19,130 nucleotides of DNA from Spirochaetales bacterium UBA4629 (lineage in GTDB: Bacteria > Spirochaetota > Spirochaetia > Sphaerochaetales > Sphaerochaetaceae), in NCBI GenBank assembly GCA_002406055.1, contig DHMZ01000026.1, positions 1 through 19,130 on the forward strand, written 5' to 3'. A program made the translations under genes and the position numbers. Below are positions 20 through 17,676 of this stretch, piece after piece (the first letter of the stretch is position 1; every line of letters starts with the position of its first letter). Under the pieces are notes generated by a model. It saw only the letters and a list, made by a program, of their open reading frames with translations. It had not been told where the DNA came from and did not search any database.

Positions 20-634
20 TCACGGACGTGCTATTTCATTAAGAAGAGTAGTATTACACATATTTGAATTTATAGATGCTTGGATAAATCCTCTTTCTGA
101 ATCTGTGTAGTAAATAGAAGAATATGAGCGTCCATTTATAGATATGCTGTCTGCACTAAATGAATTACTTGTTCTTCTTATTACGCCACTTATTGAGAAT
201 GTGCCATCTTCAATTTCTTTTGAGTTTGCTCTCTGATACTTGTAACTACACTTCAGATCAATAGTGCCAACACCATTAGAATATGAATAATTACCATTTA
301 GTGTTGAAAATGAAAGAATTGTAGAACCAGAAGGGAGAGAAATAGAAATAATCGCATTCTTCAATGCTCTAGCTTCTTTTGTATGTGATGTTGCCCATCC
401 TGAGTTATCTATAGTTCCACTGTTTGTTGTACTAAGTGCTATTGCTTCGATAACATTTTCAACCTTCTCAGCTTCTATTTTTGCATCTAAAAATGCTCTT
501 GAGTTCTCTCTTTCTTCTACTGTATAGAAAGTACCTCCACCATCAGTTAAATCTGTGTATAAAAAGGCACAGCTAGTTAATAAGAAAACAGTTAAAAGAA
601 CTGTGATTAAAACAAGAAAAGAACGCTTCTTCAT
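20..634 (-). CDS. Hypothetical lipoprotein (signal peptide plus lipobox), function unknown
   Basis: Complete ORF. The N-terminus MKKRSFLVLITVLLTVFLLTSC has a basic n-region, a hydrophobic core and an L-T-S-C lipobox. A GAGGTG Shine-Dalgarno lies about 6 nt upstream of the ATG on the minus strand (rc of 635-650). The mature part is Ser/Thr/Asn/Gly-rich with no catalytic motif I recognise. Confidence 0.75.
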   Translation of the reverse strand: MKKRSFLVLITVLLTVFLLTSCAFLYTDLTDGGGTFYTVEERENSRAFLDAKIEAEKVENVIEAIALSTTNSGTIDNSGWATSHTKEARALKNAIISISLPSGSTILSFSTLNGNYSYSNGVGTIDLKCSYKYQRANSKEIEDGTFSISGVIRRTSNSFSADSISINGRSYSSIYYTDSERGFIQASINSNMCNTTLLNEIARP

Positions 635-732: not shown

Positions 733-1428
733 ATGAAGATTCTTTGTATTTCAGATACCACACGCTCTTTAGCCTTCTCACCTATGGTGAAGGATATATA
801 TAAAGGTGTTGATTTAATACTTAGTGCAGGCGATATGCCCCTTGAGTCTTATGATTATGTCTCAACATTGCTTCATAAGGATGTTTGCTATGTCTATGGA
901 AATCATAATCTAAAAGACTTTAGAGATGCGATGAATAAAGATGGGCTATGGACTGCTATGAAAAAAGATGATGAATACAATAAGAAATTCTATGGCTTTA
1001 TGATAGATGGAAAATGCTATAGAGATAAGTCCTCAGGTCTTCTTATTGCTGGTCTTGGTGGTAGCATGCTCTACAATAATGGTGATAGCCAATATAGTGA
1101 AAAACAGATGCGATATAGGATTTGGAAGCTAATTCCCTATCTTATGTATAATAAAAGACGCTATGGCAGGTATCTTGATATTCTAATAACCCATGCGCCT
1201 CCTCTAGGTATTGGGGATGGCCCTGATTTGTGTCACAAAGGATTTAAGTGTTTTTTAGATTTTATTGATAAATTTGAGCCTAAGTATCTACTACATGGAC
1301 ATATTCATCTCGATGATTTGAATCTTCCACGAGTAAGAGAGAGAGGTAAAACAAAGATTGTTAATGTTTATGGTTCTTATTTGTTAGATGATGATTCTTT
1401 AGGAGGGACTAAGAATGGCGGCAGATAG
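733..1428 (+). CDS. Calcineurin-like metallophosphoesterase
   Basis: Ordered metallophosphoesterase motifs are present: ISD (motif I, with DTT instead of DxH), SAGDM (GD), YGNHN (GNH[D/E/N]), ITHAPP (H) and LHGHIH (GHxH). The ORF is uninterrupted. Confidence 0.85.
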   Translation: MKILCISDTTRSLAFSPMVKDIYKGVDLILSAGDMPLESYDYVSTLLHKDVCYVYGNHNLKDFRDAMNKDGLWTAMKKDDEYNKKFYGFMIDGKCYRDKSSGLLIAGLGGSMLYNNGDSQYSEKQMRYRIWKLIPYLMYNKRRYGRYLDILITHAPPLGIGDGPDLCHKGFKCFLDFIDKFEPKYLLHGHIHLDDLNLPRVRERGKTKIVNVYGSYLLDDDSLGGTKNGGR

Positions 1429-2314
1429 AATGACAGTCAGTGACGACTTTGATGACGCAAGAAGAAGGGCGAGAGTTCAAAAGGTATTAGCTACATTTAG
1501 GTGGAAAAACCCAGATTTACTTTCATTCTATGAAGTAACAAAGCTTATAAAACCAGAAAGCCAGGCTTATAAAGGGATGCAAACAATACCGGTGAAAAAT
1601 ATCATCGGCTCTGAAAATCGCTATCATGATTTTTCTAGCGCATTCTTTCCTAAGTCATATACTCTTCAACATCGTTGGGAAAGTATTGATGCTGCACGTC
1701 TTGATGATATTCCTCTTCCTCCTATTTCTGTATATAAACTAGGTGAGTGGTACTTCGTCAGAGATGGCAATCATCGTGTATCTGTTGCAAAAAGTAAGGG
1801 ACAAGAATTTATAGATGCTGAGGTTGTTGAGCTTTCTTCCCAGATTCCTCTCGAAGAGGGAATGACAATGAATGAACTTAAAAGGCGAGTTGTTGCATAT
1901 GAAAGAGGTCGTTTTATAGAGCAATATCATCCGACATATCTTCCTATGGATAAGATTATATTCACAACTCCCGGATCATACCCTGAGATGGTTAATCACA
2001 TCCTTGTTCATAAGTACTATGCTAATGAGCATTGTGATCATGTAATGACATTTGAAGAGGGTGCTGTAAGTTGGTATAAGAATGTGTATCGTCCTCTTGT
2101 TGATGCATTAGATAAAGAGCATCTGTTGTCTTTATATCCTGGGTATACCGAAGCCGATATCTACATGTGGCTTGTCAGGCGCTGGGATGAGATGAAGAGA
2201 ACAGATAGTTATGCAACTGAAGAGGAAGCTGCCTTAGATATAAAAAAAGATGCAGAGAAGAATAGATTTAAGACTTGGTTTAACTATATAAAAAGTAGAA
2301 TAAGTAGGAAGTAA
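1415..2314 (+). CDS. ParB/sulfiredoxin-like N-terminal domain protein with a C-terminal domain of unknown function (DUF4032-like architecture)
   Basis: WYFVRDGNHRVSVAK contains the DGxHR core of the ParB/Srx fold. AGGAGGG Shine-Dalgarno at about 1399-1405, 7-9 nt before the ATG at 1415. The start overlaps the upstream gene end by 14 nt. The DUF4032 assignment is from memory of this architecture, not from a search. Confidence 0.6.
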   Translation: MAADRMTVSDDFDDARRRARVQKVLATFRWKNPDLLSFYEVTKLIKPESQAYKGMQTIPVKNIIGSENRYHDFSSAFFPKSYTLQHRWESIDAARLDDIPLPPISVYKLGEWYFVRDGNHRVSVAKSKGQEFIDAEVVELSSQIPLEEGMTMNELKRRVVAYERGRFIEQYHPTYLPMDKIIFTTPGSYPEMVNHILVHKYYANEHCDHVMTFEEGAVSWYKNVYRPLVDALDKEHLLSLYPGYTEADIYMWLVRRWDEMKRTDSYATEEEAALDIKKDAEKNRFKTWFNYIKSRISRK

Positions 2315-9866: not shown

Positions 9867-9962
9867 TGATATACCTAGAATAGAGAAGAGACATTTTTAA
9901 GTATGAAAACAATTTCATATTTGTTATTTTTTCGTAAAGATTTCTTTATTAAAATTTTTTTA

Positions 9963-9991
9963 TTGACGCATTAGCAAAAAATGTGTTAAAA
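9963..9991 (+). promoter_or_regulatory. Putative promoter driving the T-box leader
   Basis: TTGACG at 9963-9968 preceded by a T-rich UP-like run. A weak -10 (TTAAAA at 9986-9991, or TGtGTTAAA as an extended -10) follows after 16-17 nt. The position is right for a leader starting near 10000. Confidence 0.35.
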
Positions 9992-10010
9992 AACCAACAA
10001 TTAAAAAAAG

Positions 10011-10284
10011 CTACGACGAAGACGGAAAAGGAAGATAGCTAGAGCGAGCTGGGTACGGTGTGAGCCAGTAGTGAAGGGCCTTTAAACCTATCACTTCAGA
10101 GCTGGAGGACAGAAAACAGAGATGTAAGTAGAGGCCTCTCGTGATTGCTGCGTTAATGCATACGGCTTGATGGAGCCTGAGTGGCGTAGAAATACGCAAT
10201 TTGAGTGGTACCGCGGGTATAGTATCAAAAAATAGATATAACTCGTCTCAAAGGATTAATAGTCTTTTGGGGCGAGTTTTTTTT
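10011..10284 (+). promoter_or_regulatory. T-box riboswitch leader (tRNA-sensing transcription attenuator); specifier most likely AUC (Ile)
   Basis: - T-box sequence AATTTGAGTGGTACCGCG at 10198-10215 (consensus AAnnnGGGTGGTACCGCG).
- Stem I AG-bulge AGAGCGA (10041-10047) with the distal stem-loop GCTGG-GTACGGTGTGAG-CCAGT, followed by TAGTGAA.
- F-box-like GCGTTA at 10150-10155.
- Stem III GCGTA-GAAA-TACGC (10184-10197) immediately 5' of the T-box.
- Antiterminator helix TTTGAG (10200-10205) pairs with CTCAAA (10247-10252), which is also the 5' arm of the terminator.
- The UGGU bulge can pair with a tRNA ACCA end. Confidence 0.85.
10242..10284 (+). terminator. T-box expression-platform intrinsic terminator
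   Basis: CTCGTCTCAAAGG (10242-10254) pairs with CTTTTGGGGCGAG (10264-10276). The stem is 13 bp including 3 G-U pairs, with a 9-nt loop, followed by T8 (10277-10284). It lies 19 nt upstream of the GTG at 10303. Confidence 0.85.
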
Positions 10285-10302
10285 ATTTGGAGGATTTGAG
10301 AA

Positions 10303-12573
10303 GTGGAAGCGAGAAGCTACAGTGATCAACTTAGAGATGTTGCATCTAGAATCAAAGGCATGAGAGAGATTATGGCTCTTTCGGAGAGCGAGATGGCAAA
10401 GAAGACCGAGGTTAGTCTTTCTGACTACAAAAATTATGAAAGTGGAAGCGTTGATTTACCTTTCTCTTTCATTCATAAGTGTGCTTTAGTCTTCTCGATA
10501 GATATTACCGATCTTCTAGAAGGTGAATCTACGACATTAACTTCTTATACTGTAACAAGAAAAGGTCAGGGTGTTCAGACAGCAAAGGAAGAAGGTATCG
10601 ACATTTTTAATCTTGCACCAAAGTTTAAAGATAAGCTAGCCGAGCCGTATTGGGTACGATATGAATACTCTGAGGAACTACAATCTAGACCAATACAGCT
10701 AAGCAAACACTCTGGACAAGAGTTTGACCTTGTTCTTTCAGGTTCTCTTTTAGTTCAAGTTGGTGAGAATAAAGAAGTTCTTCATGAGGGTGATAGCATT
10801 TACTATAACTCTTCAACTCCACACGGCATGATTGCTGTTGAAGGAAAAGATTGTGTTTTCTGTGCTGTTGTACTTTCAGGGGAAGAAAATAAGGGGGATG
10901 AGGTAATAATAGACTCTATTGTACCTCGTCCAGATAAAAAGCCTCTTCTTATAGAAAAGTTTGTTAAATGCAGTGAAGATAAAGAGGGACATTTAACAGG
11001 CGTTGAGTTTAAGAATACAGATGCATTTAACTTTGGTTTTGATGTCGTTGATGCAATAAGCGAGCATTATCCAAATAAGACAGCTCTTGTTTACTTGGAC
11101 AGAAATAGAAATGAGAGAAGATTTACGTTTGAAGAAATAAAAAAAGAGTCGAATAGATGTGCCAACTATCTTCTCAGCTTAGGTGTAAAAAAGGGTGATA
11201 AAGTTATGCTCGTCTTAAAGCGGCATTGGGAATTTTGGATTACCATCGTTGCACTTCATAAAATAGGAGCGGTTGCTATTCCTGCAACTTACCTCTTAAG
11301 AGAGCATGACTATATTTATCGCTTTAATGCAGCTAGTGTCTCAGCTGTAATTTCTACAGCTACAGGAGACTCTGCTAGCATGATTGATTCTGTTTTATCG
11401 GAGTGTCCAACTGTAAAGACAAAGATTATCGTACAAGGAGAAAAAGAAGGTTGGCACAATTTTGATAAAGAGTATCCTCTCTTTAAGAGTTCATTTAAAA
11501 GAACTAGCTCTTCTCCAAGTGGAGAAGAAAGTGCGCTTATGTTTTTCTCTAGCGGAACAACAGGAAACCCTAAGATGGTTGAGCATAAGCATACCTATGC
11601 TCTTGGACACTTTATTACAGCACGCTATTGGCATTGCTGTGAACCTGATGGCCTACACTTTACTATATCTGATACAGGTTGGGGAAAGTCACTTTGGGGT
11701 AAGTTATATGGACAATGGATGTGTGAAGGCGCTGTTTTTGTCTATGATTTTGACCGTTTTGATGCCCATGACTTATTGCCACTCTTTGCCAAATATAAGA
11801 TAACAACCTTCTGTGCTCCTCCAACAATGCTAAGAATGATGATAAAAGAAGATTTAACTAAATATGATTTCTCATCGGTAAGACATATGACAACGGCAGG
11901 CGAAGCACTAAACCCTGAAGTTGCAATACAGTTTGCAAAGGCAACAGGCTTGGAGATTATGGAAGGCTTTGGACAGACAGAAACAACACTTACTATTGCT
12001 AATTTTAGAGGTACAAAGGTAAAGATGGGAAGCATGGGAAAACCTAGCCCTGAGTACGATGTACACATCCTCACTCCAGATGGTGAAGAGTGTCTTCCTG
12101 GTGAAACTGGTGAAATTGCTATCTCTCTTAAAAATGGCAATCCTATTGGGCTCTTTACTGAATATTATCGTGATGAAGAAAAGACAAAGGAAGCTATACA
12201 TGATGGCTACTATCATACAGGCGATACTGCTTGGAAGGATGAAGATGGCTATTTCTTCTATGTAGGAAGAACAGATGACATTATTAAATCTTCTGGCTAT
12301 CGTATTGGACCATTTGAAGTTGAGTCTGTAATCATGGAGCTTCCATATGTTCTAGAGTGTGGTGTCTCTGCATCACCTGATCCTATCAGAGGTCAAATTG
12401 TTAAGGCATCGATTGTTCTTACAAAGGGCACTGAACCAACGGAAGAACTAAAGAAAGAAATTCAGAACTACGTAAAAGAACATACAGCTCCATATAAATA
12501 CCCTCGATTAATTGTCTTCAAAGATGAACTGCCAAAGACAATTAGTGGAAAGATAAAGAGGAATGCACTATGA
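10303..12573 (+). CDS. Fusion protein: XRE-family HTH + cupin sensor module (PuuR-like architecture) fused to an AMP-forming medium/short-chain acyl-CoA synthetase
   Basis: One uninterrupted 756-aa ORF with a GTG start 9 nt after GGAGG (10289-10293).
- Residues about 10-72: HTH_3-like (LSESEMAKKTEVSLSDYKNYESG).
- Residues about 105-192: cupin-like (HSGQEFDLVLSG...EGDSIYYNSSTPHGM).
- Residues about 236-756: adenylate-forming enzyme with FFSSGTTGNPKM (nt 11542-11577), EGFGQTETT, YHTGDTAW, GRTDDIIKSSGYRIGPFEVES and PKTISGKIKR. Confidence 0.85.
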   Translation: MEARSYSDQLRDVASRIKGMREIMALSESEMAKKTEVSLSDYKNYESGSVDLPFSFIHKCALVFSIDITDLLEGESTTLTSYTVTRKGQGVQTAKEEGIDIFNLAPKFKDKLAEPYWVRYEYSEELQSRPIQLSKHSGQEFDLVLSGSLLVQVGENKEVLHEGDSIYYNSSTPHGMIAVEGKDCVFCAVVLSGEENKGDEVIIDSIVPRPDKKPLLIEKFVKCSEDKEGHLTGVEFKNTDAFNFGFDVVDAISEHYPNKTALVYLDRNRNERRFTFEEIKKESNRCANYLLSLGVKKGDKVMLVLKRHWEFWITIVALHKIGAVAIPATYLLREHDYIYRFNAASVSAVISTATGDSASMIDSVLSECPTVKTKIIVQGEKEGWHNFDKEYPLFKSSFKRTSSSPSGEESALMFFSSGTTGNPKMVEHKHTYALGHFITARYWHCCEPDGLHFTISDTGWGKSLWGKLYGQWMCEGAVFVYDFDRFDAHDLLPLFAKYKITTFCAPPTMLRMMIKEDLTKYDFSSVRHMTTAGEALNPEVAIQFAKATGLEIMEGFGQTETTLTIANFRGTKVKMGSMGKPSPEYDVHILTPDGEECLPGETGEIAISLKNGNPIGLFTEYYRDEEKTKEAIHDGYYHTGDTAWKDEDGYFFYVGRTDDIIKSSGYRIGPFEVESVIMELPYVLECGVSASPDPIRGQIVKASIVLTKGTEPTEELKKEIQNYVKEHTAPYKYPRLIVFKDELPKTISGKIKRNAL

Positions 12574-13367
12574 CAAAAAGAATGAAGGTTGCTTCCATTC
12601 AGATGGATGTAAAATTTGGTCAAAAAAGAGAGAACTATGAAAAAGCTCTTGTACTGCTAGAAGAAGCAAAGAAAAGAGGCTCTGATGTAGCACTTTTACC
12701 TGAGCTATGGGACTTGGGATTTTTTCCTGAAAACAATCTCTCTCAAATGGCAGATTTAGAAGGATTCGAAACAAAGGCTTTCTTGTCATCTTGTGCAAGA
12801 AAACTCGATATGAATATTGTTGGAGGCTCTGTTGTAAATAAAAGAGGTAAAGGACTCTACAACAGTTGTTTTGTCTTTGATAGAAGTGGTCATCTTCAAG
12901 CTGAATATGACAAGACACATCTTTTTTCACCTCTTAATGAAGATAAGTTCTTCACTCCAGGGGATCATCTATCAACATTTATGTTTGATGGAGTTAAGTG
13001 TGGCGTTATTCTTTGCTATGATTTGCGTTTTCCTGAGCTCTCTCGTCGCCTTAGTTTAGATGGGGTCGAGATGCTTTTTGTTAGTGCATCTTGGCCACTA
13101 GAGAGAAAAGGACATCTACTTACACTTTCAAGAGCGAGAGCTATTGAAAACGAAATATATCTTGTTCTCTCTTCATCTGCAGGGAAGAGAGAAGATATAG
13201 ATTTCTGTGGCTGTTCTTCGATTTTTTCTCCGACAGGAGAGCTACTAGCAACACAGGATAACCAGGAAGAAGGGATAGTTGAAGCTTGTTTTGATGAAAA
13301 AGAAGTGTATTTAGCTCGAACAAATCTTCCTGTTTTTAAAGATAGAAAACCGAATTTGTACAAATAG
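12570..13367 (+). CDS. Carbon-nitrogen hydrolase, Nit/omega-amidase (YafV/MtnU-like) branch of the nitrilase superfamily
   Basis: A Glu-Lys-Cys triad is visible in LLPELWD, YDKTHLF and ILCYDLRFPE. The size (265 aa) is typical. The ATG overlaps the upstream stop (ATGA at 12570-12573). Confidence 0.8.
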   Translation: MTKRMKVASIQMDVKFGQKRENYEKALVLLEEAKKRGSDVALLPELWDLGFFPENNLSQMADLEGFETKAFLSSCARKLDMNIVGGSVVNKRGKGLYNSCFVFDRSGHLQAEYDKTHLFSPLNEDKFFTPGDHLSTFMFDGVKCGVILCYDLRFPELSRRLSLDGVEMLFVSASWPLERKGHLLTLSRARAIENEIYLVLSSSAGKREDIDFCGCSSIFSPTGELLATQDNQEEGIVEACFDEKEVYLARTNLPVFKDRKPNLYK

Positions 13368-13381
13368 ATGAGGAGGAAAGT

Positions 13382-14473
13382 ATGAGTTTCGACATTAGAG
13401 TTGAAAGAACAAAAGAACCAAAGGAAAAGCCAGATGAGAATCATCTTGGGTTTGCTAAGTATTTTACAGATCACATGTTTTGTGCTGATTGGACAGAAGA
13501 CGAGGGATGGCATGATTTTAGAGTTGTTCCTCATAAGCCAATATTAATTGAGCCTGCATCCTGTGTCTTACATTATGCACAAATGATGTTTGAGGGAATG
13601 AAAGCATATAGAGCACCAGATGGAGATGTCCTTCTCTTTAGACCAGATATGAACGAAAAGAGAATGGAAAAAACATGTGAGAGAATGTGTATTCCTATGC
13701 TACCTAAAGGTCTTCTTGTTGAGGCAATTAGAAGCTTAATTCAGACAGATGAGTCATGGGTTCCATCAAAAGAAGGAACAGCTCTTTACATTAGGCCTTT
13801 TATCTTTGGCGACGAAGTTTCTTTCTCAGTTCTTCCTGCAAAGCACTATCGCTTTATGATTATTCTTACTCCAACAGGTTCTTATTATGCTGCTAATGAT
13901 GGAGGATTATCTACAACAAGAATCTTTGTTCAAGATAAGTATATAAGAGCAGCAGAGGGCGGAACTGGATATGCAAAGGTCGGTGGTAACTATGGTGGCG
14001 CAATGAGAGCAAGTGAAGATGCTATGCGTTTTAACTGTAAAGATGTTTTATGGCTTGATGCCAAAGATCATAAATACGTTGAAGAAATAGGAACATCTAA
14101 TGCTTTCTTTGTTATAAATAATGAGGTAATAACAGCACCACTCGATAGTGGAACGATTCTTCCTGGTATTACTCGTGATAGTGTTATTCGCCTTCTCTCA
14201 TCATGGGGAATTAAGGTAAGCGAGAGAAAACTCAGTATCTATGACGTGCTCGAAGCAAGTAGAAATGGAACATTGACTGAAATATTTGCTTCAGGAACTG
14301 CTGCTGTTATTTCACCTATAGGATGCTTATGTTTTAACGGCGAAGATTACCCTGTCCAAAAGGAAAAGGTCGGACCAATTGCACAGAAACTCTACGATAC
14401 TCTCTACGGAATTCAAACGGGAAGAATAAAAGATGATATGGGTTGGTCTTATAGCTTGGGTTTAAAAAAGTGA
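13382..14473 (+). CDS. ilvE: Branched-chain amino acid aminotransferase (PLP fold type IV, long YbgE/YwaA-type)
   Basis: FTDHMF, HYAQMMFEGMKAYR, LFRPDMNEKRM, ALYIRPFIFG, GGTGYAKVGGNYG (PLP lysine region) and GITRDS. AGGAGG Shine-Dalgarno 5-6 nt upstream. Confidence 0.9.
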   Translation: MSFDIRVERTKEPKEKPDENHLGFAKYFTDHMFCADWTEDEGWHDFRVVPHKPILIEPASCVLHYAQMMFEGMKAYRAPDGDVLLFRPDMNEKRMEKTCERMCIPMLPKGLLVEAIRSLIQTDESWVPSKEGTALYIRPFIFGDEVSFSVLPAKHYRFMIILTPTGSYYAANDGGLSTTRIFVQDKYIRAAEGGTGYAKVGGNYGGAMRASEDAMRFNCKDVLWLDAKDHKYVEEIGTSNAFFVINNEVITAPLDSGTILPGITRDSVIRLLSSWGIKVSERKLSIYDVLEASRNGTLTEIFASGTAAVISPIGCLCFNGEDYPVQKEKVGPIAQKLYDTLYGIQTGRIKDDMGWSYSLGLKK

Positions 14474-15111
14474 AAAGGATAACTCTGTTTTTAGGTCACT
14501 ATGGATCTGGAAAAACTAATGTAGCTATAAACTATGCATACCATATAAATAAAAAAGGCAAAAAAGTTGTTATAGCTGATTTAGATATAGTTAATCCATA
14601 TTTTAGAACCAAAGATAGCCAAGAGGAATTAGAAGCGAAAGGAATTGAAGTTATTTCACTTCCTTTTGCGGATAGCAATGTTGATTTACCGGCTCTTCCT
14701 TCGTCTATTTATAGATTAGTAGAAGACAAATCAATTTATTCTGTAATTGATGTAGGCGGTGATGATAGAGGTAGTTATGCTCTAGGTCGTCTTGTTCCTT
14801 ACGTAAAAGAAGAAAACAACTACGATATGTTCTATGTTGTGAATTTTTATCGCCCTTTAACTCAAAATGCACTAGATGCATATGAAGTTTTGAAAGAGAT
14901 AGAAAAAGCATCGGGACTATCTTTTACTGGAATAATAAACAACTCTAATCTTGGAGCAGATACTACTAGAGACACAATAGAAAAAAGAATAGATGAGGCT
15001 GAAAAACTCTCTCGTCTTTCTAATCTTCCAATTGTTTATACAACAGTTGAAGAGGGGCTAAAAGGAAATAATGAATTTGGTCTAAAGTTACAAAGAAGGC
15101 CATTTGATTAA
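14470..15111 (+). CDS. Uncharacterised SIMIBI-class P-loop NTPase (MinD / G3E-metallochaperone-like)
   Basis: Walker A GHYGSGKT at residues 9-16. Walker-B-like hydrophobic strand plus VIDVGGDD. A later IINNSNLG resembles an NKxD-type specificity strand. No Cys/His metal motif, HTH or membrane segment. The GTG start overlaps the ilvE stop (GTGA). Confidence 0.6.
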   Translation: MKRITLFLGHYGSGKTNVAINYAYHINKKGKKVVIADLDIVNPYFRTKDSQEELEAKGIEVISLPFADSNVDLPALPSSIYRLVEDKSIYSVIDVGGDDRGSYALGRLVPYVKEENNYDMFYVVNFYRPLTQNALDAYEVLKEIEKASGLSFTGIINNSNLGADTTRDTIEKRIDEAEKLSRLSNLPIVYTTVEEGLKGNNEFGLKLQRRPFD

Positions 15112-15124
15112 AAAGGAAATTGTT

Positions 15125-15331
15125 ATGGCAAAGATTACTTTTGAAATAGACAAATGTAAGGGATGTGGACTCTGTGTAGAAGCTTGTCCTAAGTCTCTTC
15201 TTTTTCTTGATAAAAGCAAAATGAATAAGAAGGGACATAATTATGTTCAAATAAAAGATATGTCTAAGTGCGTAGGTTGTGGCTTCTGCTTCGCTATGTG
15301 CCCAGACTCAATAATTACGGTGGAAAAATAA
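15125..15331 (+). CDS. 2-oxoacid:ferredoxin oxidoreductase delta subunit (2x[4Fe-4S] ferredoxin)
   Basis: Two CxxCxxCxxxCP motifs (CKGCGLCVEACP and CVGCGFCFAMCP). I place the start at ATG 15125 (MAKITFE), with AAGGA 7 nt upstream, rather than the tracked 15104. Confidence 0.85.
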   Translation: MAKITFEIDKCKGCGLCVEACPKSLLFLDKSKMNKKGHNYVQIKDMSKCVGCGFCFAMCPDSIITVEK

Positions 15332-15332
15332 T

Positions 15333-16397
15333 ATGAGTGAAAAGGTATTAATGAAGGGCAATGAGGCCATTGCTGAGGCAGCTTTAAGAGCTGGATGCAG
15401 ACATTACTTTGGTTATCCAATTACCCCACAGACGGAAATTGCAGCATATATGGCAAAGAGAATGCCTAAAATAGGCGGAGTTTTCCTTCAAGCAGAAAGT
15501 GAAATTAGTGCAATAAATATGGTCTATGGAGTCTCATCTACTGGTAAGAGAGTTATGACAAGTTCCTCAAGCCCAGGAGTCTCTCTTAAAATGGAGGGAA
15601 TTTCATATCTTGCTGGTTCAGATTTACCTGCTGTAATTGTAAATGTACAACGAGGAGGTCCGGGTCTTGGAGGTATTCAGCCTAGCCAATCTGATTATTT
15701 TCAAGCAACAAAAGGTGGTGGACACGGTGACTATCACATGATTGTACTTACGCCTGCGTCTGTTCAAGAAATGGCCTCTCTTACAATGTTAGCTTTTGAT
15801 TTAGCAGATAAATATCGTACTCCGGTTATGATTTTAGCTGACGGCACTATTGGACAAATGATGGAAAGTGTTGTTCTTCCTGATGAGGTCAAAGAGAAAA
15901 AATATGAAAAACCTTGGGCTTTAACAGGAACAAAAATGATGAGGGAGCACAATATTGTCAACTCTCTCTATCTCTCTCCTGAAAAGTTGGAAGAGACGAA
16001 TATAGAGCGTTTTGAACGTTACAGGAAAATTGAGGAAAACGAAGTTAGAGTTGAGAGTTATATGATGGATGATGCATCTTATGCTCTTGTTGCTTTTGGT
16101 ATTGCTTCTCGTGTTGCCAAGGCGTCTGTTAACGAACTGAGAGCTCTTGGTGTTAAATGTGGTCTTATTCGACCTCTTACAGTATGGCCATTTCCTTCAA
16201 AAGTAATAAATGAAGCATCTTATAGAGTTGAAGCATTCATTTCTGTAGAGCTTTCTATGGGACAAATGATTGAGGATATTCGTCTTGCTGAGGAGTGCAG
16301 AAAGCCAGTCTATTTGTGTCAACGAGCTGGTGGAATTATTCCATCCACCTCGCAAATTGTTGAGAAGGTTCTCTCTATACAAAAAGGAGGTAAGTAA
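15333..16397 (+). CDS. 2-oxoacid:ferredoxin oxidoreductase alpha subunit (Kor/Vor-type; substrate not assignable from sequence alone)
   Basis: Typical N-terminus (MKGNEAIAEAALRAGCRHYFGYPITPQTEI) and VNVQRGGPGLG. It sits between the delta and beta subunits and starts 1 nt after the delta stop. Confidence 0.85.
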   Translation: MSEKVLMKGNEAIAEAALRAGCRHYFGYPITPQTEIAAYMAKRMPKIGGVFLQAESEISAINMVYGVSSTGKRVMTSSSSPGVSLKMEGISYLAGSDLPAVIVNVQRGGPGLGGIQPSQSDYFQATKGGGHGDYHMIVLTPASVQEMASLTMLAFDLADKYRTPVMILADGTIGQMMESVVLPDEVKEKKYEKPWALTGTKMMREHNIVNSLYLSPEKLEETNIERFERYRKIEENEVRVESYMMDDASYALVAFGIASRVAKASVNELRALGVKCGLIRPLTVWPFPSKVINEASYRVEAFISVELSMGQMIEDIRLAEECRKPVYLCQRAGGIIPSTSQIVEKVLSIQKGGK

Positions 16398-17149
16398 TGG
16401 CCATGCTATTTCAAAAACCAAAGAGCTTAACAGAGAAAGAGCTTCATTATTGCCCAGGTTGTTCTCATGGTATAATTCATCGCTTAGTTGCAGAAGCTAT
16501 TGATAGCCTTGGTATTGAAGGTAGAACAATAGGTGTTGCGCCTGTTGGCTGTGCTGTTATGGCATATGATTATTTTGCTTGCGATATGATAGAAGCTGCC
16601 CATGGAAGAGCACCTGCTGTTGCTACAGGTATAAAAAGATCTCTTCCTGAGAACATTGTTTTTACCTATCAGGGGGATGGAGATCTTGCTTCTATTGGTA
16701 TGGCTGAGACAGTTCATGCAGCAACAAGGAATGAAAATATTACAATCATATTTGTTAATAATGCTATCTATGGAATGACAGGAGGGCAAATGGCCCCAAC
16801 CTCTCTTCCTGGACAGGTTACACAAACCTCTCCTTATGGTAGGGATGTCTTTCGAGAAGGCTATCCAATAAAGGTATGTGAGCTCTTATCTAGCTTAGAT
16901 GGCCCATACTACATTTCACGTGTTGCTGTTAATAACGTAAAGAATGTTCTTAGTGCAAAGAAACACATAGAGAGAGCATTTCGAAATCAGGTTGAAAATA
17001 AAGGTTTTTCTCTTGTTGAAGTAGTTTCTGCATGTCCAACCAATTGGGGTTTGACTCCACAAAAGGCTTTAGAGTGGGTTGATGAAAAGATGATTCCTTA
17101 TTACCCACTTGGAGTTTTTAGAGATAAAGATGAGAAGGAGAGAGTATGA
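16397..17149 (+). CDS. 2-oxoacid:ferredoxin oxidoreductase beta subunit (thiamine-diphosphate-binding)
   Basis: CPGCSHG Fe-S/TPP-subunit N-terminus. TPP motif GDGDLASIGMAE...NNAIYGMTGGQ. The start overlaps the alpha stop (TAATG). Confidence 0.9.
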   Translation: MAMLFQKPKSLTEKELHYCPGCSHGIIHRLVAEAIDSLGIEGRTIGVAPVGCAVMAYDYFACDMIEAAHGRAPAVATGIKRSLPENIVFTYQGDGDLASIGMAETVHAATRNENITIIFVNNAIYGMTGGQMAPTSLPGQVTQTSPYGRDVFREGYPIKVCELLSSLDGPYYISRVAVNNVKNVLSAKKHIERAFRNQVENKGFSLVEVVSACPTNWGLTPQKALEWVDEKMIPYYPLGVFRDKDEKERV

Positions 17150-17676
17150 CTACTAAATTGATTATTGCTGGTTTTGGTGGCCAAGGAATCCTTTTCTTTG
17201 GTAAGTTACTTTCATATAAAGCATTGTTTGAAAATAAAGAGGTTAGTTGGCTTCCGTCCTATGGCCCAGAAATGAGGGGAGGAACAGCAACATGTTCTGT
17301 GACAATAAGTTCTTCCTTAATTGGTTCTCCAATTATTGATGAACCAGACATTCTAGTTGCAATGAATCTACCTTCTCTTGATAAGTTTGAGAGCAAAGTA
17401 AAGAGTGGAGGTAAGATTTTTGTCGACTCTACTATGGTAGAACGTAAAATAAAACGAAGTGATGTTGAGGCCTTTTATATTCCTTCTTCAGCGCTTTCTC
17501 AAGAGATGGGGAATGTGGCACTTAGCAATATTGTGCTACTTGGAAAGGTCTTAAAAGAATGCCCTGAACTTGGCAGAAACAAAATTGAGGAAGCTATTAA
17601 AAAAGTTGTCAGTGCCAGGCATCAGGATATGTATGAAATAAATTTGGAAGCTATAAATAGAGGCTTCAATTATTAA
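17146..17676 (+). CDS. 2-oxoacid:ferredoxin oxidoreductase gamma subunit
   Basis: IIAGFGGQGILFFGKLL followed by SYGPEMRGG, typical of OFOR gamma domains. The ATG overlaps the beta stop (ATGA). Confidence 0.85.
   Translation: MTTKLIIAGFGGQGILFFGKLLSYKALFENKEVSWLPSYGPEMRGGTATCSVTISSSLIGSPIIDEPDILVAMNLPSLDKFESKVKSGGKIFVDSTMVERKIKRSDVEAFYIPSSALSQEMGNVALSNIVLLGKVLKECPELGRNKIEEAIKKVVSARHQDMYEINLEAINRGFNY

Follow-up and report, generated by a model that had tools for sequence, protein, structure and literature searches.

The 19,130-nucleotide stretch of contig DHMZ01000026.1 from Spirochaetales bacterium UBA4629 (assembly GCA_002406055.1), hereafter the window, carries on its plus strand eight genes placed behind a T-box leader RNA whose specifier codon is that of isoleucine. 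We consider it likely that this operon supplies isoleucine from a branched-chain organic acid by means of an AMP-forming acyl-CoA ligase, a 2-oxoacid:ferredoxin oxidoreductase (OFOR) and a branched-chain aminotransferase (BCAT), under the control of tRNA-Ile. An earlier note on this DNA had proposed such a module, leading from an organic acid to an acyl-CoA, a 2-oxoacid and finally an amino acid, with isoleucine made from 2-methylbutyrate; the specifier, the gene order, the specifiers of paralogous ligases and the relatives of the ligase all speak in its favour. This reading is built on what was observed of the leader RNA and its specifier, and of the gene families, which are conserved and co-vary with the specifier.

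The operon and its leader RNA

The list of open reading frames (ORFs) together with Pfam and NCBIfam searches returned the eight plus-strand genes and the families that the earlier note had given for them:

10303..12573, plus strand: fusion of a helix-turn-helix (HTH) and cupin region to an AMP-forming ligase, 756 aa (Pfam HTH_19, Cupin_2, AMP-binding, AMP-binding_C)
12570..13367, plus strand: carbon-nitrogen hydrolase, Nit branch (Pfam CN_hydrolase, PF00795, E = 2e-49)
13382..14473, plus strand: BCAT, class IV, IlvE type II (NCBIfam PRK13357, TIGR01123)
14470..15111, plus strand: cysteine-free SIMIBI-class P-loop nucleoside triphosphatase (NTPase) (Pfam CbiA, 26.9 bits; ParA-like)
15126..15331, plus strand: OFOR delta, two [4Fe-4S] ferredoxin-like (Pfam Fer4 families; longest ORF from TTG 15104)
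15333..16397, plus strand: OFOR alpha, VorB subfamily (Pfam POR_N and PFOR_II; NCBIfam PRK07119)
16397..17149, plus strand: OFOR beta, thiamine-diphosphate-binding (Pfam TPP_enzyme_C; NCBIfam beta families all below their cutoffs)
17146..17676, plus strand: OFOR gamma (Pfam POR, E = 5.6e-34)

The ligase and Nit genes overlap in an ATGA at 12570, 14 nt (13368-13381) separate Nit from BCAT, and a GTGA overlap at 14470 leads into the P-loop gene; in the OFOR part there are a 1-nt gap at 15332, a 1-nt overlap (TAATG) at 16397 and an ATGA overlap at 17146. The start of delta is ambiguous: the TTG at 15104 taken by the ORF finder overlaps the P-loop gene by 8 nt, and the ATG at 15126, which has an AAGGAAA ribosome-binding site, leaves a gap of 14 nt after that gene. 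Five start/stop overlaps had initially been counted; their positions are right, and the real tally is four overlaps and one 1-nt gap, with two 14-nt gaps if delta begins at 15126.

Upstream of these genes lie the following elements:

9963..9992, plus strand: putative sigma-70 promoter, read from the sequence (-35 TTGACG at 9963-9968; 18-nt spacer; TG-extended -10 TGtTAAAAA at about 9984-9992)
10004..10253, plus strand: T-box leader RNA (Stem I, Stem II/IIA-B region, Stem III, antiterminator), RF00230
10090..10092, plus strand: specifier codon AUC (isoleucine) by covariance-model alignment, followed by the conserved purine A at 10093
10198..10215, plus strand: T-box sequence AAUUUGAGUGGUACCGCG, whose UGGU bulge would pair with the tRNA 3' NCCA end
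10240..10286, plus strand: intrinsic terminator (stem 10240-10278 with 18 pairs, plus a U8 tract), its 5' arm common with the antiterminator

T-boxes induce genes upon shortage of an amino acid and thereby control its supply. The leader matches RF00230 over 10004-10253 of the plus strand and model positions 1-219, with 73.7 bits and E = 4.6e-16 when Rfam is run in E-value mode, and both the Stem I AG-bulge and the distal-loop motif were found in it. A default Rfam scan of the window returned no match, the T-box being found in E-value mode alone: the gathering score of RF00230 is 93 bits, and that the leader falls under this cutoff is a matter of threshold and not a structural failure. The two leaders of the related locus L022 (9668-9907 and 12313-12568) likewise score under 93, at 89 and 81.5 bits. 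Such sub-gathering scores cause default annotation pipelines to miss these T-boxes, which may be why the regulon is uncatalogued.

The antiterminator fold of 10200-10252 reaches -12.8 kcal/mol with a 7-nt bulge, and the terminator with its U-run -22.7 kcal/mol (z = -6.15; none of 200 shuffles was equally stable). The strand CUCGUCUCA is common to both structures, which are consequently mutually exclusive. The full-model match, the terminator and this exclusive antiterminator confirm that a canonical T-box stands before the eight genes, as had been claimed. A consensus promoter scan did not call the promoter at 9963 in the window; in all orthologous leaders a TTGACA-N17-TATAAT promoter occupies the equivalent place.

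The leader resembles the ilv-leu, ileS and transporter T-boxes of the Bacillota in its Stem I specifier loop, its UGGN bulge and its competing antiterminator and terminator, and ileS leaders share its AUC specifier. Unlike those T-boxes, it precedes ligase, OFOR and BCAT genes of a salvage type rather than a de novo pathway, a synthetase or a transporter, and its host is a spirochaete.

The specifier follows the ligase clade

Related loci were gathered by scanning one genome per species with the fusion ligase, which yielded at least 600 matching stretches, at least 586 of them confirmed relatives. The comparative counts given here rest on 80 retained loci and the counts of architectures on 60 complete loci. 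Nearly all copies of the fusion ligase have a T-box core motif some 100 nt upstream, and the related loci contain about 130 homologous leaders. For comparison of the specifiers, 134 leaders were aligned with MAFFT and the column aligned with the specifier of the window was read.

Leaders of ligases of the window type (at least 65% identical) have ATC in this column in 74 of 74 cases; the earlier note had read the specifier as AUC, and both this column and the RF00230 alignment of the window agree with it. Leaders of a paralogous ligase, 52-62% identical, specify valine in all 41 cases (GTA in 39, GTC in 2). The Rfam covariance model independently gives AUC and GUA in L022 and CUC in L075. Paralogous fusion ligases that stand in tandem are each provided with a separate promoter and T-box; a second HTH-cupin ligase directly follows the first in L013 (6725-9110), L022 (12313-14913), L033 (12521-14908) and about 38 other loci, all from Clostridia.

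Nine further plus-strand T-boxes of the related loci carry the leucine codons CUC or CUG. Leu-type cassettes are located at 4250-8213 in L033, 10164-15089 in L075 and 13709-16449 in L013. Those of L033 and L075, which were scanned with Pfam, encode a LeuA-like protein (HMGL-like and LeuA_dimer, about 463 aa) and a xylose-isomerase-like TIM barrel fused to a more distant AMP-ligase (818-836 aa), and the cassette of L075 also encodes an amidohydrolase; the other seven Leu T-boxes show matching ORF patterns. A cassette with a Leu specifier may be an isovalerate-to-leucine channel. In the Sphaerochaetaceae locus L003 (5841-9635), a LeuA-like protein, a TIM barrel and a ligase are encoded as separate ORFs upstream of the Ile operon; no amidohydrolase was seen among them, and a T-box was looked for upstream of this cassette and none was found. 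The window has no Leu-type cassette.

A route from acid to amino acid predicts such an arrangement: one T-box-gated ligase for each branched-chain amino acid around a shared OFOR and BCAT. The specifier of the T-box serves as a built-in functional label that tells which amino acid each ligase serves.

Two side observations concern these leaders. In Clostridia with tandem ligases the shared OFOR genes lie downstream of the second, valine leader, so that upon shortage of isoleucine alone induction of the OFOR would need to get past a Val-gated terminator. T-box motifs were also seen on the opposite strand, with ATG (Met) in the specifier column at about 3358 (minus strand) of L044 and CTC (Leu) at about 21680 (minus strand) of L043.

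The acyl-CoA ligase and its relatives

The catalytic domain of the fusion protein (residues about 246-756) matches AMP-binding (PF00501, E = 7.6e-68) and PF13193 and contains the YHTGD motif. Its best solved relative is 3ETC, the MacsMa enzyme of Methanosarcina acetivorans (617 bits over the full length, 51% identity). MacsMa favours 2-methylbutyrate and completes formation of the CoA ester with this acid, not with most others; it has a Gly in place of the pocket Trp of Acs, and an alternate residue, Trp259, is critical (PMC10455477). The window ligase also has Gly at the Acs-Trp position (EGFGQTE), and its W465, which corresponds to Trp259 of MacsMa with the offset set by YHTGD, is invariant in 118 of 118 sequences. 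MbcS, the best-scoring NCBIfam family, activates 2-methylbutyrate and isobutyrate, and activity with acetate and dicarboxylates was not detected (PMC10026030).

To compare the Ile clade (80 sequences) with the Val clade (38 sequences), positions were defined as discriminating when at least 90% conserved in each clade and different between the two. The sole such position in the catalytic domain, four residues before W465, is G461 (79 of 80 in the Ile clade), replaced by Ala in 38 of 38 Val-clade sequences; the neighbouring L464 shows no variation in the Ile clade, and the Val clade has Met or Ala in its place. Gly rather than Ala at 461 would give the Ile clade the larger pocket, which fits C5 2-methylbutyrate as against C4 isobutyrate. 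Based on these sequence comparisons, we propose that the catalytic domain is a short branched-chain acyl-CoA synthetase, namely a 2-methylbutyrate-CoA ligase. MacsMa and MbcS, both characterised on 2-methylbutyrate, share the AMP-forming ligase fold of the window protein but do not have its N-terminal HTH-cupin of about 200 residues, and the window ligase differs further in sitting in an amino-acid-gated operon.

The OFOR and the aminotransferase

By Pfam the OFOR set is complete, with delta (two [4Fe-4S]), alpha (POR_N and PFOR_II), beta and gamma (POR) subunits. Alpha passes the NCBIfam model PRK07119 'VorB' with 547.5 bits (cutoff 399), and its PDB neighbours 1YD7, 8YS5 and 6N2N are generic or 2-oxoglutarate enzymes. 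From the logic of the T-box, the ligase and the BCAT, we infer that the enzyme works in the carboxylating direction. Archaeal VOR and bacterial Kor/Oor enzymes have the same delta-alpha-beta-gamma set, thiamine diphosphate and [4Fe-4S] domains; the window OFOR differs from them in its proposed carboxylating role, in being preceded by a P-loop NTPase gene and in belonging to the PRK07119 subfamily instead of the archaeal VOR equivalogs. A gut-bacterial OFOR acting on branched-chain 2-oxoacids is PorA of C. sporogenes, shown genetically to make branched short-chain fatty acids (SCFAs) from branched-chain amino acids (bioRxiv 10.1101/401489). The BCAT passes the equivalog cutoffs of both PRK13357 (439.7 bits, cutoff 307) and TIGR01123 (352.5 bits, cutoff 250).

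Proposed route and alternative explanations

In the following mechanism, three things are conjectural: the substrates, the direction in which the OFOR runs and what the accessory proteins do. When tRNA-Ile is charged, the leader would fold into the terminator at 10240-10286 and transcription would stop. When it is uncharged, its anticodon would pair with AUC and its 3' end with the UGGU bulge, which would stabilise the antiterminator and let the eight genes be transcribed. The ligase would then convert exogenous 2-methylbutyrate into 2-methylbutyryl-CoA, ATP being split to AMP; the four-subunit OFOR, using reduced ferredoxin, would carboxylate 2-methylbutyryl-CoA with CO2 to 3-methyl-2-oxovalerate; and the BCAT would turn the latter into L-isoleucine. 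The Nit hydrolase would probably clear an amide by-product of the transamination, following the logic of an omega-amidase, and so pull the reaction forward.

A broader use of the same enzymes has to be weighed, in which 2-methylbutyrate, isobutyrate and isovalerate are all accepted in organisms having a single ligase, so that all three branched-chain amino acids are supplied and only isoleucine is sensed. BCATs and VOR-type OFORs are usually broad, MbcS accepts 2-methylbutyrate as well as isobutyrate, and no Val-type ligase was found in the window or in the Sphaerochaetaceae loci. We nevertheless regard such a general module as unlikely: genomes add a separate T-box-gated ligase for valine or leucine, and the Ile-clade ligase would therefore be insufficient for those acids, while G461 and L464, fixed in the Ile clade, are different in the Val clade. 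The acid could also be propionate, from which isoleucine is reported to be made by reductive carboxylation in some anaerobes and methanogens. The ligase would in this case form propionyl-CoA and the OFOR 2-oxobutyrate, which IlvBN, IlvC and IlvD would process further, leaving the last step to isoleucine to the BCAT of the operon. An Ile T-box and a BCAT fit this scheme equally well, and MacsMa can adenylate propionate, yet the nearest characterised ligases favour 2-methylbutyrate and MacsMa leaves the CoA ester unfinished with most other acids. The Gly of the Ile clade, compared with the Ala of the Val clade, moreover makes for a larger pocket, the opposite of what a C3 acid predicts, and ilvBNCD genes are in the operon in none of the 60 complete loci, all of which makes propionate quite improbable.

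Least probable, to the point of being hard to credit, is an oxidative or lipid role, in which isoleucine would be broken down by the BCAT and the OFOR as far as 2-methylbutyryl-CoA, with 2-methylbutyrate being scavenged by the ligase, for primers of anteiso fatty acids or for energy. OFORs are reversible, the PorA of C. sporogenes does run from branched-chain amino acids to branched SCFAs, and MbcS of S. aureus serves branched fatty-acid priming (PMC10026030). A T-box, however, would induce the degradation of isoleucine precisely when tRNA-Ile is uncharged, which is self-defeating; an AMP-forming ligase costs two ATP equivalents, making energy conservation impossible; and a catabolic role gives no reason for having one ligase per amino-acid specifier.

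Several points weigh against isoleucine supply from 2-methylbutyrate itself. The weakest link is the branched-chain specificity of the OFOR, which rests on the genomic context and on the name of an NCBI subfamily; alpha is in fact nearer to Kor/Oor-type and generic 2-oxoacid enzymes, with 326 bits for PRK08659 versus 72.9 for the archaeal VOR model PRK08366. The ligase scores 457 bits with MbcS, for which the equivalog cutoff is 850. AUC is followed by C instead of the usual purine in 16 of the 74 orthologous leaders. Finally, the roles assigned to the Nit hydrolase, the P-loop protein and the HTH-cupin, three of eight products or domains, are guesses.

Robinson & Allison 1969 and Allison & Peel 1971 documented that rumen anaerobes make isoleucine from 2-methylbutyrate and valine from isobutyrate; these papers and Allison 1962/1966, all cited in PMC7356843, are sources of the classical chemistry. 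Reductive carboxylation was also inferred for Methanobrevibacter ruminantium (PMC2812497), and a further paper notes it for rumen methanogens (PMC10658910). The chemistry proposed here, from acid to acyl-CoA, 2-oxoacid and amino acid, is that of the Allison-type pathway, and the carriers of the operon share its rumen and gut habitat. The Allison-type work consists of physiological labelling, and in the literature searched we did not find a bacterial gene set, accessory proteins or regulation attached to it. A full-text search, from which subscription journals are largely absent so that an earlier mention is possible, retrieved no paper joining a T-box with an OFOR or a ligase for this route, and, within the same coverage, none on the HTH-cupin fusion or its P-loop partner; the remark that the route had not been described as a riboswitch operon thus holds within this literature. 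The operon, apparently undescribed so far, couples a riboswitch class and a chemistry that are both known and adds new accessory parts to them.

The need of rumen and gut anaerobes for branched-chain volatile fatty acids and their conversion of these into isoleucine, valine and leucine, known since the 1960s, would thereby gain a concrete and widespread gene set with its control, at least 586 confirmed stretches being found with one genome per species. The cross-feeding of producers of branched SCFAs, such as C. sporogenes with PorA, with consumers of these acids becomes testable, as do the rationale of feeding branched-chain acids to ruminants and the way in which an OFOR is made to act as a carboxylase.

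We further put forward, as a speculation that is more doubtful than the route itself, a modular regulon in which one T-box-gated ligase each for isoleucine, valine and leucine feeds a shared anabolic OFOR and BCAT. In such a regulon the ligase would be a trigger enzyme whose metal-binding HTH-cupin reads the cognate branched ligand (acid, 2-oxoacid or amino acid), the NTPase would be an obligatory nucleotide-dependent partner for the function or assembly of the OFOR in the carboxylating direction, and the whole unit would have moved between Clostridia and Spirochaetota. If this were true, the roles of the ligase and of the NTPase would be new biology, with RNA sensing the demand and protein sensing the substrate or the product.

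Conservation and gene order in related loci

The best match to the fusion ligase comes from a metagenome-assembled genome (MAG) of Candidatus Ornithospirochaeta (Spirochaetota), at 97% identity. MAGs of Sphaerochaetaceae and Spirochaetales follow at 73-79%, and the remaining loci, at 65-72%, belong to rumen and gut Clostridia (Oscillospiraceae, Acutalibacteraceae, Faeciplasma, Ruminococcus). When the eight proteins of the window were mapped onto the 80 independent loci, the same leader and gene set were seen to recur, and the arrangement is therefore not due to chance. The most frequent architectures were as follows, lig1 and lig2 being the first and second fusion ligase:

lig1-lig2-Ploop-δαβγ-BCAT: 17 of 60 complete loci
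lig1-Nit-BCAT-Ploop-δαβγ (the type of the window): 11 of 60
lig1-Ploop-δαβγ-BCAT: 10 of 60
lig1-lig2-BCAT-Ploop-δαβγ: 7 of 60
lig1-lig2-Nit-BCAT-Ploop-δαβγ: 6 of 60

Nit lies directly upstream of BCAT in 18 of 18 loci, and the P-loop gene directly upstream of delta in 63 of 63. The survey of gene order behind T-boxes that the earlier note had suggested accordingly finds it conserved across two phyla, in Sphaerochaetaceae and in many Clostridia. The operon is a riboswitch-controlled unit common to both phyla, with the P-loop NTPase and the HTH-cupin as two conserved accessory parts. The Spirochaetota loci (the window, L001-L008 and L063) encode proteins 65-72% identical to those of the Clostridia behind a homologous leader, which suggests that the operon and its riboswitch were transferred as a unit between Clostridia and Spirochaetota.

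The locus L050 (12398-14970, minus strand) lacks the P-loop gene: its Ile-type ligase is followed by a more divergent OFOR, 39-73% identical, that lies on the opposite strand. It is the only case without the pairing of P-loop gene and delta.

Accessory domains and proteins

The HTH-cupin occupies residues about 1-200 of the fusion (10303-10900 in the window), consists of an XRE-type HTH and a cupin, and is present in both ligase clades. Cupin_2 scores 44.5 bits (cutoff 27.2); HTH_19, at 26.9 bits, falls just under its cutoff of 30.2 in the window and yet is listed for homologues. None of the 118 sequences departs from H136, E140 and H174, whose H-x3-E...H spacing is that of 2-His-1-carboxylate cupins such as HppE. 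Conservation within clades is 0.81 for the cupin, equal to that of the catalytic domain, and 0.70-0.79 for the HTH. Twelve of the 13 clade-discriminating positions fall in the N-domain; of the positions that both clades conserve, 12 of 71 in the N-domain are different between them, as against 1 of 241 for the ligase (Fisher p = 9.5e-8). Such a pattern is the signature of an N-domain specificity that diverged together with the amino acid served.

The AlphaFold2 (AF2) model of the N-domain has an overall predicted local distance difference test score (pLDDT) of 75.6, its confident parts being the HTH (5-73) and the cupin (110-191), and shows a five-helix N-domain and a β-barrel. Its best fold matches in the PDB are HppE, HEPD, MPnS and the Vibrio HTH_3 regulator 1Y9Q; a PDB sequence search with the HTH-cupin gave no match. 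No stand-alone HTH-cupin relative was found among the 120 matches listed, all of which appear to be fragments of the same fusion. We read the HTH-cupin as a probable metal-dependent sensor for the cognate branched ligand, which might act on the enzyme or on transcription in the style of a trigger enzyme like BirA, in which, as in the window fusion, an HTH is joined to an adenylate-forming ligase. HppE and HEPD have an HTH-like domain and a metal cupin with a fold like that of the N-domain model, but enzymes of the HppE type use O2, a reaction unlikely in the anaerobe of the window. Autoregulation by the HTH-cupin found no support, in that a palindromic operator was looked for in 126 upstream regions and no inverted repeat is common to them; a target could lie elsewhere in the genome. 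Residues 85-105 are invariant in sequence and modelled with low confidence, and their folding may depend on contact with a partner, with a ligand or with the ligase domain.

The P-loop protein has the Walker A motif GHYGSGKT and the invariant motifs ADxDIVNPYFR, DxGGDDRG and NNSNL. It contains no Cys in the window, and no Cys is conserved among 38 homologues, so that an Fe-S role like that of NifH or of Mrp/NBP35/ApbC is ruled out by the lack of conserved cluster-ligating Cys. The family is large, with at least 8000 candidates at E <= 1e-5, and its named members among the matches listed carry only generic names. The AF2 model (pLDDT 85.6) was matched by Foldseek to the GTPase of the signal recognition particle (SRP) and ATPase-type HypB with probability 1.00 and a template modelling (TM) score of about 0.6, that is, to generic SIMIBI NTPases only. 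Its strict adjacency to delta and its translational coupling in the window mark it as an OFOR accessory; assembly, maturation or cofactor loading of the OFOR is our best guess for its role, held with low confidence.

In the Nit hydrolase the Glu-Lys-Cys triad is represented by the motifs LPELW, DKTHLF and ILCYD. It reaches no NCBIfam equivalog cutoff (103 bits versus 249 for the YafV family PRK10438), and its PDB neighbours include mouse Nit2 (2W1V, 109 bits, rank sixth) and yeast Nit3. Glutamine-transaminase/omega-amidase systems, among them MtnE/MtnU of methionine salvage and that of Nit2, provide known cases of adjacent Nit and transaminase genes. In these pairs, as in the operon of the window, a Nit-branch hydrolase stands beside an aminotransferase; the window differs from glutamine transaminase K pairs in that its transaminase is a class IV BCAT and its hydrolase stays below the omega-amidase equivalog cutoff. 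By analogy, the hydrolase may act on an amide by-product such as 2-oxoglutaramate and make the amination irreversible.

Neighbouring genes

The flanks of the operon consist of thyA, folA, two MATE transporter genes, an IF-2B/MtnA-like gene, a divergent polar-amino-acid ABC transporter and a convergent glgA. These genes are unrelated, and the operon is therefore a discrete unit. Two further ORFs, at 20-634 (minus strand, 204 aa) and 1415-2314 (plus strand, 299 aa), have no Pfam match. No clear composition-based signal of transfer was detected, the GC content being 0.35-0.40 in the operon and 0.32-0.38 in the flanks. A perfect inverted repeat, ATGAAAacaaTTTCAT, lies at 9903-9918, in the intergenic stretch that separates the divergent ABC-transporter operon from the T-box promoter, and is absent from L001, even though the ligase protein of L001 is 97% identical to that of the window. 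At the other end of the operon, the stop codons of OFOR gamma (plus strand) and glgA (minus strand) overlap convergently at 17673-17676 with no intervening intrinsic terminator, and read-through past this point from either side would be antisense to the opposite gene.

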